Positions 1,545 to 5,997 of a DNA stretch of 5,997 bases are shown piece after piece (positions within the stretch are counted from its first letter, which is position 1; each line of letters starts with the position of its first letter). The DNA is taken from IMG/VR virus record IMGVR_UViG_3300045988_003743, positions 1-5,997 of that record, one strand, 5' to 3'. Under the pieces are notes generated by a model. The model searched no databases, was not told the DNA's origin, and worked only from the letters and a program-made list of their open reading frames with translations. This DNA is from a virus. The position numbers and the translations under genes were made by a program.

Positions 1545-3287
1545 TTACAGTTTCTCCAGCCCCGGCACGCTGTAAAGCGGCATAGGCCGTGTAGTTTCGT
1601 TTTTAATTAGGAAGTCTGCAATAAACTGTGGTTCGTCCTGCACTGCCAGCGTGCGTTGAATTTCGGCTTTGCCTTCCTTCATCCATTCATCGCTGAGGTA
1701 TGGTCGTTTGCTGTAGTTGTCGGCATAGTGCCAACTATCCAGAGTACCCACCGCGTTGCTCCGGAAAAGTCCGCTCACGCGGTTCGGCTTCATTCTGTAT
1801 TCGCTCCATGCCTCTTGATAGCCGAACACCTCTTCATTAGCGGTTTTTGCGTTACCGCTGTCACAGTAGATTTCTTTGGTTTTGATTGCTTGTTCTCCTA
1901 CGTTTGCGAACTGCGGGTAATAATAATCTAAGGTGTCTCGTCTGCTCCAGAAACGCTCAAGCCCCTGCTGATAGGTGCGGTCGTGGCGTACACAGCATAC
2001 ACCAATTACAAAGCCGTGTTCCTCAAAGGACTTTGTAAAGCTGTTTTCGCTGAATGGTGTTACGCTTACTGCGCCCGCGTTGCCCTGCGGCGTTGTGCCG
2101 CTTTCACTCGTTTGGATGACCTGCGAGACGTTGATCATGTATCGACCGCCGCCCAGATATTCCGGGATTTGTACGGTCTTGTCACTGATTAGCGTTCCAA
2201 AAAGACTACGGACGATTTCACGGTATCGACTGCCACCGCGTGCCAGCGCTTCATAATAGTGCTGTACCGCGAATGCCTGCCGCAACTCGTTGATAGTTGT
2301 TGCTTCTACGCCGTGTAGGTTCGTGTACAAGTTTCCGCTTATGATGCCGTCTCCTGTTGAGCTTGGTGTTTGGCCGCTGGTTTCCACGCCTGACAGCTCA
2401 ACCGCTTCTATTTTGCCTTCCCAATAGCGATTGAATGCTCTGCCCGCCGCCGTATTTTTTGGCGAGTTAAACCATACGTTTAAGTTTTCTTCATATGGTT
2501 CTATTTTGCCGTTCACCAAATTGCCCATGATGACCGGTGCGTCACCGCTCAGGTTGATTGTTACCGCTGGTCCTTTCTGAGGTTCCGGCAGTGCGCTCGT
2601 AAAGTAGTCGTGGAATTTGTTCACCGGTAGACACTCATCGCCAATTACTGCTAATTCGTTTAATTTTGTTTGTGTCCATCCCGTTCCAGTATGTGCGTTG
2701 TTGTCTACTGCGTTGTCTCCTGTATATTCTGGAACTGGGTCGTCTAGATTTTGGTCTCTAAACCATTCATTCCAAATTTTTACATATCCACGCACGGGTA
2801 GTGCGTTTATACTTAGTTTGTTGTTTACTTCTCCTGTGTTGATTTTTGTCGGAATTCCCATGTAGTCCAAAATGGAGTTTTCAGCCGGTGTTGCTTTTTC
2901 TTTTGTTGCTGTTTTGTGGTCTTTGTCGATGGTTCCGACTCCAATATTGATTTGTGGTACGCTGTATGCTTCTTTTTGTTCCCACGCTCCGGTTGTGTTC
3001 TCACCGCAAAATTCTTTCCAGTGCTCCCACACAATTCGGTTTGGTACAAAGAAGTAATATACATCTAAATATGCGTTGTCCATTACCGGAAAGATTGGTG
3101 TGGTCATACGCACTAGGCCGATTGTGTCCACGCTGAAAGTATCGCCTGGTAGCACTTCATCAACATAAAATGGAATCAGTTTGCCCGCGTCAAATGTAAA
3201 TTTCACATTTTGGTCGCGTTTGAATCTGCTTCTGCTGATGAAGGTTTGTGGAATCTGGTTGAAATGACTTTCATTATTCCTGTTCAC
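1545..3287 (-). CDS. VP1: VP1 major capsid protein (F-like jelly-roll capsid, 580 aa), GTG start
   Basis: This is the largest ORF. The N-terminus ([44 protein letters not shown]) is typical of gokushovirus VP1. It carries the hallmark block [34 protein letters not shown]...[10 protein letters not shown]. The start is GTG at 3287; an in-frame TAG lies 4 codons upstream, so no alternative start exists. An AGGAGG sits 12 nt upstream. The CDS overlaps the VP3 3' end by 14 nt. Confidence 0.95.
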
Positions 3288-4760: not shown

Positions 4761-4947
4761 GGTTTTCCTCCTTTTCGGTGAAGTAAAGTGCTACTTCTTC
4801 AACTTTGTACAGTGAGTACAGACCCGGGTGCCTGTTTGCATAATCTTTTGCCCTTTGTTTTGCGTATTTTGGCTCCGTTGCGATTTTAAGGACCGTTGTC
4901 ATGCTCCCATCATCGTTGAATCTTCTAACTTCATAACTGTGCGTCAT
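4747..4947 (-). CDS. Hypothetical protein, 66 aa, first gene of the operon
   Basis: The ATG at 4947 is preceded by AGAAAGGAAGGTACTCAAA and lies about 20 nt downstream of the predicted transcription start. It overlaps the peptidase start by 14 nt. It is hydrophilic with no TM segment, and I recognise no family. Confidence 0.6.
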   Translation of the reverse strand: MTHSYEVRRFNDDGSMTTVLKIATEPKYAKQRAKDYANRHPGLYSLYKVEEVALYFTEKEENHETR

Positions 4948-4974
4948 TTTGAGTACCTTCCTTTCTGTGATTAT

Positions 4975-5027
4975 ATTCTATCATATTTTTAGGTTTTTGT
5001 CAAGCCTTTTTTAAAATTTTTTAGAAA
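4975..5027 (-). promoter_or_regulatory. Main promoter: TTGACA-17-TAGAAT with an extended -10 TG and an upstream A/T-rich UP-like element
   Basis: The minus strand reads AAAAAATTTTAAAAAAGGC TTGACA (5003..4998) aaaacctaaaaatatga TAGAAT (4980..4975). The TG sits one base upstream of the -10. It is followed by the SD and ATG of the first ORF. Confidence 0.75.
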
Positions 5028-5085
5028 ACTTTTCCTAGAATAGGAGCGCCGTTAAACTCCCCGCTTCAGCGGCTCCCTTTGATAA

Positions 5086-5102
5086 GACCGGCAAAGCCGG
5101 TC
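5086..5102. other. Perfect 7-bp hairpin GACCGGC-AAA-GCCGGTC within a GC-rich structured block
   Basis: The inverted repeat was read directly. It is flanked by a CCGC-TTCA-GCGG hairpin (5061..5072). A possible closing helix is GGAGCGC (5043..5049) with GCGCTCC (5114..5120). Confidence 0.6.
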
Positions 5103-5163
5103 AGACTGTTGGCGCGCTCCGTCAGACGTTGCCGCCATCGCTCACTCTGTTTTATTGGCCGTT

Positions 5164-5329
5164 CTTTCAACATTTTCCACATAGTTTTCAACTTTTCCAC
5201 ATTGTTAAATTTTAGCACAATAGAGTGTTTCAACAATTCAACAAGTTTTCAACATTTCTTTTAACAGTAGTTTCTTTCATAAAGAAACGTTATTGCGTTA
5301 TTTTTTAATGGTTTTCAACTTTTTAACTA
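5164..5329 (+). repeat. Iteron-like array of about 10 same-orientation TTTTC(A/C)AC repeats, including two exact DnaA-box consensus matches (TTTTCCACA)
   Basis: The copies are: CTTTCAACA 5164-5172, TTTTCCACA 5173-5181, TTTTCAACT 5185-5193, TTTTCCACA 5193-5201 and GTTTCAACA 5227-5235. Then ATTCAACA 5236-5243, TTTTCAACA 5246-5254, TTTTAACA 5259-5266, TTTTCAACT 5312-5320 and TTTTAACT 5321-5328. Confidence 0.8.
5270..5288. other. Perfect 8-bp AT-rich hairpin GTTTCTTT-CAT-AAAGAAAC inside the iteron region
   Basis: The inverted repeat was read directly. Confidence 0.6.
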
Positions 5330-5361
5330 TCTCTACTACTACGACTACAACAAGTTAATAA

Positions 5362-5413
5362 ATATATGCGCGTGCGTGCGTGCGCGTTTACGCGCGCGTA
5401 TGCGTGCGCATAC
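5362..5413. repeat. Alternating purine-pyrimidine (Z-DNA-prone) GC-rich imperfect palindrome containing (TGCG)n
   Basis: 5362..5387 (26 nt) and 5389..5413 (25 nt) alternate R/Y strictly. Arms 5365..5386 and 5391..5412 pair over 22 positions: 17 Watson-Crick and 5 G.T. The loop is TTTA. Confidence 0.8.
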
Positions 5414-5460
5414 CTTTGAGCGTTAGCGAACCCCGATGCGTAGCGAGGGTGTGAAAGGGG

Positions 5461-5494
5461 TGTTAGGGGTGACGGCGGAACGTCACCCCTAACA
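5461..5494. other. Perfect 14-bp hairpin TGTTAGGGGTGACG-GCGGAA-CGTCACCCCTAACA
   Basis: The inverted repeat was read directly. There is no T-run after it on either strand. Confidence 0.7.
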
Positions 5495-5537
5495 GAAACA
5501 AATAGAGCCAAGTACCTTACTTGATAGGTACTTGGCT
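5491..5537 (-). terminator. Candidate rho-independent terminator downstream of VP4
   Basis: The minus strand reads AGCCAAGTACCT-ATCAAGTA-AGGTACTTGGCT: a 12-bp perfect stem (5537..5526 / 5517..5506) with an 8-nt loop. It is followed by CTATTTGTTTCTGTT (10 of 15 bases are T). It lies 26 nt past the VP4 stop. Confidence 0.4.
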
Positions 5538-5548
5538 AGGTGACACCA

Positions 5549-5596
5549 CAGAAAGAAAATGCTCACAGCTTTCCAGCACGGTGCATTTTCTTTCTG
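5549..5596 (-). other. 14-bp perfect hairpin straddling the VP4 stop codon
   Basis: CAGAAAGAAAATGC (5549..5562) pairs with GCATTTTCTTTCTG (5583..5596). The 20-nt loop contains the VP4 TGA (5565..5563). One arm encodes VP4 residues ..RKKMH.., and the other is the first non-coding sequence after the stop. Confidence 0.6.
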
Positions 5597-5997
5597 GTCA
5601 CTCTTTCTTTTGTCTGTAGGTCTGTGGCGTAATCTCTACCTTCATACGCGTATTTGTTCGATTCTATGATTTTAGCTTGTCGCTCTCTTTTGATTTCCCA
5701 TAGCCTTTTAGGGTCTTCCGCTTCCATTTTTTTTTCGTAGTATCGCGGAATTCTTGCGTGTTTTCCGCTTGTGCATTGAATGTAACCTGCTTTCCATATC
5801 TCTTCTTTGTGTTTTTGATACCATGCATCTCCAATTCCCGGTTTTAGGCTCATTTTTGCAAATGGTTTTGTTTGTCCCAAATCGTAGTATACATTGGCTT
5901 TTTTCCCGTCTATTTCGTACATTTTTTTAGTAACGTATCCTGCAACATATCTATAAGTTTCAGGTACTGCTTGCGCTATTTGGATTTGACCGTTTCC
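5563..5997 (-). CDS. VP4: Replication initiator VP4, C-terminal part (continuation of 646..1; bases 5943..5997 duplicate 1..55)
   Basis: The minus frame of ORF 5563..5922 stays open up to the window edge: GNGQIQIAQAVPETYRYVAGYVTKKMYEIDGKK... YVAGYVTKK matches the paired catalytic tyrosine motif (Y-x3-Y) of phiX174 gpA (YVAKYVNKK, from memory). The stop is TGA at 5563..5565. Confidence 0.93.
   Translation of the reverse strand, partial: GNGQIQIAQAVPETYRYVAGYVTKKMYEIDGKKANVYYDLGQTKPFAKMSLKPGIGDAWYQKHKEEIWKAGYIQCTSGKHARIPRYYEKKMEAEDPKRLWEIKRERQAKIIESNKYAYEGRDYATDLQTKERVTRKKMHRAGKL
5943..5997. repeat. Terminal direct repeat, identical to 1..55 (circular assembly overlap)
   Basis: Exact 55/55 identity with the window start. 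Confidence 0.9.

Follow-up and report, generated by a model that had tools for sequence, protein, structure and literature searches.

Among the described elements that open double-stranded DNA at bacterial origins, the closest to the locus reported here is the basal unwinding system (BUS), which in the incC region of Bacillus subtilis is composed of DnaA-box#6 and DnaA-box#7 and the DnaA-trios, with the consensus 3'-GAT-5' (Richardson 2016/2019; Pelliciari 2021, PMC8287927; PMC6669920; PMC10721633). In the B. subtilis oligonucleotides the arrangement is TTATCCACA|AATCCACA-GGCC-CTACTATTACTTCTACTA, or in full form 5'-TAGTAGAAGTAATAGTAG-GGCC-TGTGGATTT-GTGGATAAGT (PMC8287927 supplement), and C is the best-tolerated substitute for the central A of a trio (PMC10721633). 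The trio region of C. difficile, CACCTACTACTATTACTACTATGA, belongs to this type as well. A BUS is recognized by a DnaA box with no more than two mismatches to the species motif, located 0-16 bp from the trios and facing them (usually with a second box), by at least three trinucleotides with a central adenine, carried by the strand on which the box is read as TGTGGA, by an AT-rich stretch beyond the trios, and by a chromosomal location beside dnaA/dnaN.

Some mobile replicons also make use of the host initiator: the theta origins of P1 (oriR), pSC101, RK2 (oriV), F and R6K join host DnaA boxes with an initiator of their own. These origins share with the present locus a mobile replicon with its own Rep and DnaA boxes beside an AT-rich region, and they differ from it in that they open via 17-22-bp Rep iterons. 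To our knowledge, no plasmid or phage theta origin has been described with a full trio-containing BUS, and none from a rolling-circle ssDNA phage. Gokushoviruses are among the most abundant gut phages, and for most of them we know of no host, mapped origin or integrase. In PMC and bioRxiv full text (with incomplete coverage) we found no description of DnaA boxes, DnaA-trios or an oriC in Microviridae or gokushoviruses, in line with an earlier note on this DNA, which knew of no described microvirus origin built from DnaA boxes or iterons.

In this work we analysed a repeat array in the non-coding region of a gokushovirus genome. We propose that the array is, in all likelihood, the DnaA-box cluster of an oriC-like unwinding cassette acting on the replicative form (RF), and DnaA binding is predicted. 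The anatomy of the locus, its conservation, a layout identical to that of the BUS, and the presence of the same pattern and box flavour at bacterial origins are all observed. BUS and oriC modules are known elements; the context here, a rolling-circle ssDNA phage with its own Rep, is one from which we know of no report.

The repeat array and the cassette in the window

The window, i.e., the whole stretch of 5997 nt that was analysed, covers an entire circular gokushovirus genome (5942 nt) and repeats 55 nt of it as a terminal redundancy (assembly overlap). Every gene is carried by the minus strand: VP2 (649-1506), VP1 (1545-3287), VP4 (Rep), which crosses the window ends and has its stop at 5563, VP3, an ORF5-like DNA-binding protein, an M15 peptidase, and two small ORFs of 66 and 76 aa, for which searches of Pfam and PHROG gave zero matches. 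The repeat array is found in the sole long non-coding region of the genome (4948-5562). A non-transcribed zone is bordered on one side by a conserved terminator-like hairpin 3' of the VP4 stop (5506-5537, minus strand) and on the opposite side by a near-consensus sigma-70-type promoter of the downstream operon, TTGACA-17-TG-TAGAAT (4975-5003, minus strand, read from 5003 to 4975), with a strong Shine-Dalgarno sequence preceding that operon; the cassette is placed between the hairpin and the promoter.

Ten same-strand units of the TTT(T)C[A/C]AC type are present on the plus strand between 5165 and 5327, arranged in three clusters. Seven are exact TTTC[AC]AC (5165-71, 5174-80, 5186-92, 5194-5200, 5228-34, 5247-53 and 5313-19), one is the near-exact ATTCAAC (5236-42), and two are TTTTAAC variants (5259-65 and 5321-27). 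The recount agrees with the earlier note, which had listed eight TTT(T)C[A/C]AC repeats and two TTTTAAC variants in one orientation with cores 8-12 nt apart; the same 8-12 nt was measured start-to-start inside the clusters. Its six occurrences of TCAAC within 5164-5329 were found again, and the two TTTTCCACA copies (at 5173 and 5193) are indeed 20 nt apart and fit TTWTNCACA exactly, being the only exact matches to it in the window. Over the whole window TTTCMAC occurs 10 times against 2.37 expected, a count reached in 0 of 200 shuffles, and in a local test, in which 5164-5329 was shuffled 20,000 times with its dinucleotide composition preserved, the seven exact units compare with a mean of 0.31 and a maximum of 4. 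Taken by themselves, the two exact DnaA-box matches lack significance, as two or more turn up in 36 of 200 shuffles; the significance rests on the array and its context.

The proposed cassette extends from 5164 to 5367 (roughly 200 nt), beyond the end at 5329 given in the earlier note. The distal DnaA-box cluster (5164-5201), in which the consensus TTWTNCACA is read on the plus strand, contains CTTTCAACA (5164-72), TTTTCCACA (5173-81), TTTTCAACT (5185-93) and TTTTCCACA (5193-5201). Its box positions are in register in relatives, mostly as GTTGAAA on the coding strand, and the two perfect TTTTCCACA boxes of the window occupy positions that are mostly TTTTCAACA in relatives. An inter-cluster spacer (5202-5226), conserved in the alignment, leads to the middle cluster (5227-5266, plus strand), composed of GTTTCAACA (5227-35), AATTCAACA (5235-43), TTTTCAACA (5246-54) and CTTTTAACA (5258-66); a sub-family of relatives has other sequence at this spacer and retains the flanking boxes. 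Next is an AT-rich spacer of constant length (5267-5311) with a hairpin (5270-5288) and a palindrome, AACG-N6-CGTT (5288-5301); the distance between box ends is 47 nt in almost all relatives (103 distinct spacers; mean DNA-fold z -2.0). The BUS proper begins with the tandem boxes TTTTCAACT (5312-20) and TTTTTAACT (5320-28), 8 nt apart start-to-start on the plus strand (5312-5328), and continues with the 4-nt box-to-trio spacer ATCT (5329-5332) and five DnaA-trios of the minus strand (5333-5347, consensus 3'-GAT-5'), which read CTA CTA CTA CGA CTA on the plus strand and TAG TCG TAG TAG TAG on the coding strand from 5347 to 5333. The last part is an AT-rich candidate unwinding element (5348-5367, 17 of 20 A/T by direct count), which includes the phage-specific invariant CAACAAGTT (coding-strand AACTTGTTG, 5348-5356) and beyond which the GC content rises sharply.

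Compared with the B. subtilis BUS, the phage cassette has the same tandem boxes 8 nt apart facing the trios, the same 4-nt spacer (GGCC in B. subtilis), at least three trios, an AT-rich stretch beyond them, and more boxes of one orientation upstream. The differences are that the phage module is found on a 5.9-kb ssDNA-phage genome encoding an HUH Rep, without dnaA/dnaN beside it, that the phage boxes are TTTTCAAC/TTTTCCAC and not TTATCCACA, that most phage spacers are not GC-rich, and that a phage-specific TTGTTG/AACTTG motif is present between the trios and the AT-rich stretch. In relatives the nearest box is separated from the trios by 4 nt and has another box 8 nt upstream of it; the window's own pair (TTTTTAACT/TTTTCAACT) stays within two mismatches of a species motif only if that motif is the Clostridial TTTTCAACA flavour. 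At least three trinucleotides with a central adenine are present in the window and in the family, on the strand expected for a BUS, the AT-rich stretch is at 5348-5367, and in place of dnaA/dnaN the neighbours are VP4 and the late operon. The element therefore counts as BUS-like, in a new setting, and not as the oriC of a chromosome. The trio-proximal box of the window, TTTTTAACT, is degenerate, with two mismatches to TTWTNCACA and four to TTATCCACA; this region reads TTTTTAAC where relatives mostly have TTTTCCAC. Since TTTTTAACT is mismatched and unique among the 129 modules described below, the copy in this genome may be weakened.

Several other features were noticed in the non-coding region. 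An extended -10-like sequence, TGCTAAAAT, lies on the minus strand inside the inter-cluster spacer, within the array (5217-5209), has the counterpart TG(C/T)TAAAGT in most relatives, and could drive transcription through the distal boxes. The 47-nt spacer has a central palindrome, ACG-N6-CGT, between a T-run and an A-run, which is kept while the sequence varies (relatives L001-L265); a 47-nt palindromic spacer was not seen in the inspected bacterial oriCs, and the palindrome could be a site for a dimeric protein or a cruciform. Right after the VP4 stop (5506-5547, minus strand) a nearly invariant GGTGTCACC is followed by a 12-bp hairpin with the loop ATCAAGTA, in which a compensatory pair change is found (CCAAG/CTTGG in the window, CCCAG/CTGGG in relatives). 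This hairpin is terminator-like, yet its conservation hints at more, e.g., a complementary-strand origin or a Rep site. An insertion at 5418-5500 with a perfect 14-bp hairpin (5461-5474/5481-5494) is specific to the window and absent in most relatives. A GC-rich alternating purine-pyrimidine tract (5368-5410), Z-DNA-prone and partly palindromic, adjoins the AT-rich element and lies outside the invertible unit described below, being unmoved where the cassette is inverted; most relatives and the unrelated KT264804 lineage have similar GC-alternating tracts, and one is also found beside the AT-rich region of a chromosomal oriC (L084). An Rfam search of 4900-5600 gave miRNA-like matches on the GC-alternating tract only, all sub-threshold.

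Conservation and inversion of the cassette in microviruses

The non-coding region is better conserved in DNA than the genes. All 31 of 31 IMG/VR relatives with VP4 68-81% identical have the units in the same register, and at the positions of the window's two TTTTAAC variants the relatives have the canonical GTTGAAA. Extended by a pattern scan in IMG/VR and by blastn of GenBank phages, the set comprises 129 distinct modules, from genomes with VP4 43-81% and VP1 about 43-77% identical to those of the window. The check proposed in the earlier note, conservation of the array and its orientation in related gokushoviruses, gave a positive result: the array is kept in the 129 modules, and its orientation in all but seven, which are inverted in place. 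Counted over all modules, 1120 units are forward and 15 reverse, and x in GTxGAAA is T in 925, G in 195, A in 2 and C in none.

In every module the order on the coding strand is AT-rich stretch, TTGTTG, TAG NNG TAG TAG TAG, 4 nt, (T)GTGGAAAA and GTTGAAAA, and the relatives' consensus is TTTTCAAC|TTTTCCACA-TACT-(CTA)5-CAACAAGTTATATTATAATAC. The trio-proximal box is TTTTCCAC / GTGGAAAA in 97 of the 129 modules, 64 of which have the full TTTTCCACA, one mismatch from TTATCCACA. The trios are invariant but for one, whose centre is split between A (65 modules) and C (64), with G and T absent. This restriction to A or C fits the reported C-tolerance (PMC10721633), and the trio constraint thus supports the DnaA-trio reading. 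The AT-rich stretch beyond the trios is kept in all relatives. KT264799 (L035) has the BUS alone (AT-rich stretch, trios and two boxes) without the array, and MG945657 has a mixture of GTTGAAA, GTTGATAA and TGTGGATAA boxes.

In seven of the 129 genomes (L034, L253, L265 and L283-L286) the cassette is inverted in place with unchanged flanks. The inverted span is about 215 nt, from the AT-rich stretch through the last box, and the seven genomes belong to three or more VP4 clades and come from several independent studies. In-place inversion marks the cassette as a unit and indicates that it functions on duplex DNA, and it argues against roles at the level of a transcript or of the virion strand. 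The trios are on the coding strand in the other 122 modules; such a strong orientation bias is unexpected for a purely double-strand function, unless it reflects common ancestry.

Boxes of other flavours occupy the same place in independent, more distant microvirus lineages. In L205/L207 (VP4 27% identical) the strand that does not carry the genes has (TAG)5-6, GCAT, TGTGGAAATGTGGAAA and four perfect TGTGGATAA boxes; KT264804 (L292; VP4 32%) combines a full BUS, TTATCCACATTTCCACA-gcacc-CTACTACTACTACTA, and the A-rich stretch that comes after it with at least five more TTATCCACA boxes; in PQ006815 (L293; VP4 27%) 22-bp tandem repeats contain six TTATCCACA boxes, and an AT-rich stretch comes next. 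Two of these three have a full trio-containing BUS. Boxes beside an AT-rich stretch therefore recur in four lineages and trios in three, with a box flavour that differs by lineage. A flavour that varies while the architecture recurs is the behaviour of host-initiator sites, unlike that of Rep iterons.

BUS-like patterns were also noticed in larger viral-flagged IMG/VR contigs of 9-160 kb (L191, L243, L179, L215, L216, L227 and L266-L282), with no dnaA, dnaN or VP1 within the fetched stretch. L243 has RNA ligase, GyrB/GyrA and ThyX near a GTTGAAA-type BUS, and L191 has about nine GTTGAAAAC units. The canonical pattern TAGTAGTAG-N4-TGTGGATAA gave 17 matches in IMG/VR, all in 12-160-kb contigs and none microvirus-sized. 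Large phages, plasmids and mis-binned bacterial origins are all conceivable identities for these larger contigs.

Bacterial origins with the same pattern

We scanned 596 Gb of genome sequence from bacteria and archaea with TAGTAGTAG-N5-GTKGAAA-N-GTKGAAA (about 20 specified bases) and obtained at least 120 matches, where we estimate about one by chance. Since 114 of the 120 listed matches have dnaA and/or dnaN no more than a few hundred bp away, the phage pattern is a signature of chromosomal oriC. Among the 120 listed, none has VP1 or VP4 beside it, and no prophage copy from which a host could be identified was found among them. Most listed matches have GTGGAAA boxes (Pyrinomonadaceae, Selenomonas). 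GTTGAAA at the BUS together with downstream same-orientation clusters is found in Oscillospiraceae, Eubacteriales, Ruminococcus, Faeciplasma and other Clostridia MAGs, and it is enriched at the origin: seven copies in the 579-nt dnaA-dnaN spacer of L069 against none in 7.4 kb, and nine in 289 nt at the oriC of L139 against one in 4.6 kb.

The oriCs of the Clostridia MAGs (L069, L080, L083, L084 and L139) share with the phage modules the GTTGAAA flavour, a near-identical BUS core (TAGTAGTAG-GGGC-TGTTGAAA.GTTGAAA) and clustered same-orientation arrays such as GTTGAAAgattGTTGAAAacttGTTGAAAactt; the L084 oriC carries TGTGGAAAAGTTGAAA, identical to the phage. They differ in that the bacterial copies have neither AACTTGTTG nor the 47-nt palindromic spacer. 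In blastn comparison of the phage modules with the 120 bacterial loci only 31-41 nt were alignable, a motif-level likeness that does not support recent capture from a host oriC.

The TTTTCAAC flavour is, on this evidence, a natural origin box in gut Clostridia, and TTTTCAACA is probably the DnaA box of Oscillospiraceae-type Clostridia; that a Clostridial DnaA would read the TTTTCAACA flavour is deduced solely from enrichment at oriC. Against the DnaA reading, TTTTCAACA differs from the E. coli DnaA-box consensus at position 6, a position that matters in E. coli. The DnaA recognition helix of GTTGAAA-only Oscillospiraceae (L069, L083, L089 and L126) reads G-RNHSTMTIS, in comparison with GGRDHTTVLH in E. 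coli, with substitutions that include D433N and T435S (E. coli numbering); this altered helix fits a shifted box preference and is a candidate determinant of the T-for-G change in the box. The box flavour, together with the Firmicute-type promoter and ribosome-binding site, suggests a Clostridia-like host, and we infer an Oscillospiraceae-like Clostridium. A parallel observation was made in Pyrinomonadaceae and other Acidobacteriota (among L038-L157), whose oriCs have 10-13 GTGGAAA (TTTTCCAC) boxes within 400 bp on either side of the BUS and whose DnaA has R399N and D433H (E. coli numbering), changes that suggest a lineage-specific box preference.

Alternative readings and proposed function

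The suggestion in the earlier note that DnaA boxes in the microvirus non-coding region recruit DnaA for unwinding gains support from the BUS geometry, the oriC pattern, the Clostridia box flavour and the TTATCCACA boxes of other lineages. What counts against a DnaA origin, and is left unexplained, is why a microvirus with its own Rep should need one. The cassette might instead bind DnaA without firing, acting on the multicopy RF as a sponge that draws DnaA off the host origin, in the manner of E. coli datA or the inc regions of B. subtilis. About ten boxes per RF would suit such a role, and plasmid-borne DnaA-box regions of B. subtilis were named inc since they interfere with the chromosome origin. 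For a sponge, however, five perfect trios in register, the 4-nt spacer and the AT-rich element would be superfluous, yet they are invariant in 129 modules, and KT264799 (L035) has the BUS without the array. The strict conservation of the trios favours real opening, and we regard a pure sponge as unlikely.

The units could also be iterons for the phage Rep (VP4) or a small phage protein at a rolling-circle double-strand origin, as in pMV158-type plasmids, geminiviruses and circoviruses. One-orientation direct repeats adjoin the phage-specific invariant AACTTGTTG, which has AACTTG in common with the verified phiX174 nick site CAACTTG^ATA, and no mapped VP4 origin of gokushoviruses was found in a literature search. 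The motif is located where a DnaA filament would melt DNA. Its coding-strand TTGTTG, between the AT-rich stretch and the trios, is invariant and preceded by AAC, TAC, TAT or AAT, and the TTGTTG/AACTTGTTG motif is absent in the bacterial oriCs and other microvirus lineages compared. AACTTGTTG, within TATAACTTGTTGTAG, is a candidate VP4 nick site. The phiX174 viral-strand origin (30 nt, CAACTTG^ATATTAATAACACTATAGACCAC), compared here along with the host priming signals of Bullavirinae, is from the same virus family and shares AACTTG, but it is located inside gene A and has no DnaA boxes or trios; only 6 nt are in common with this 30-nt gpA origin, and the AAC part varies among gokushovirus relatives. 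AACTTG was not found in the non-coding regions of the module-less gokushoviruses CPG1, KT264796, MG945503 and KX513872, and as a general gokushovirus Rep site it was ruled out.

Rep iterons normally co-vary with their cognate Rep. The present units are identical across VP4 identities of 43-81%, with no co-variation; this constancy in 129 modules points to host-initiator sites. The same units and arrays are present in bacterial dnaA-dnaN spacers without phage genes, canonical DnaA boxes are at the same place in other microviruses, and iterons leave the perfect trio geometry unexplained. The option of VP4 or small-protein iterons raised in the earlier note is thus disfavoured, and we consider it improbable. 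Its mention of an ABC primosome assembled on single-stranded DNA does not agree with the data either. An A-site also represents use of DnaA by a replicon with an ssDNA stage, but its box is base-paired in a hairpin, whereas the phage family, with its 1120 forward and 15 reverse units, has virtually no complementary copies, and no inverted copy of the unit is found in the non-coding region of the window.

A function of the region in a transcript or single strand (promoter or UP-element array, ncRNA, complementary-strand origin, or a small ORF, with a minus-strand candidate at 5066-5236 and a plus-strand one at 5079-5264) is highly improbable. TTGAAA does resemble a -35 hexamer, the -10-like TGCTAAAAT is inside the array, and open frames run across it. 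On the other hand, the cassette is inverted in seven genomes, the array is located between a terminator-like hairpin and a strong promoter, no Rfam family reached threshold, and boxes without inverted copies have nothing to fold with in ssDNA. The coding reading was rejected: the open frames on the T-rich strand are compositional, and they are broken by spacings of 8, 9, 11 and 12 nt, by the 4-nt indel of a sub-family and by the inversion. We give next to no credence to sites for another host protein such as Spo0A, silencing the phage during sporulation: TGTTGAA is one mismatch from the 0A box TGTCGAA, the likely host is a spore-forming Clostridia member, and phi29 is a precedent for a phage silenced in sporulation via Spo0A, but the diagnostic C is found in 0 of 1122 units (GTCGAAA), which have T or G instead (A in 2), G giving the DnaA consensus, and the trios, BUS geometry and chromosomal oriC location of the units point to DnaA; a 0A-box cluster was rejected on the missing core.

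For the unwinding cassette that we prefer, DnaA binding and opening would take place by analogy with B. subtilis incC. Host DnaA would occupy the same-orientation boxes on the double-stranded RF; from the two tandem boxes next to the spacer an oligomer of ATP-DnaA would be directed to the TAG trios on one of the strands; and the oligomer on the trios would stretch and open the AT-rich element. Of three possible uses of the opening, we would put first the loading of helicase and a theta-type replication or maintenance of the RF that is coupled to the host, a theta origin being among the options of the earlier note; in the second place, the opening might expose a candidate VP4 nick site (AACTTGTTG) as single-stranded DNA; in the third, DnaA might be titrated away from the host origin. 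It is conceivable, and we put it forward tentatively, that the host-origin unwinding module works in gut gokushoviruses, with the RF fired by DnaA like a minichromosome, giving either a non-integrating, cell-cycle-coupled episomal (carrier or temperate-like) state or DnaA-dependent Rep nicking, and with the box flavour (GTTGAAA, GTGGAAA or TTATCCACA) then being a host signature.

A conserved host-initiator module would offer these phages a mechanism of replication or persistence unlike the phiX174 paradigm of a Rep and a PriA or DnaG priming signal. The box flavour matches particular bacterial oriCs and, if the proposal is true, would provide a sequence-based host predictor for uncultured microviruses. 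A virus copying the minimal bacterial origin-opening unit would also lend independent support to the BUS model.
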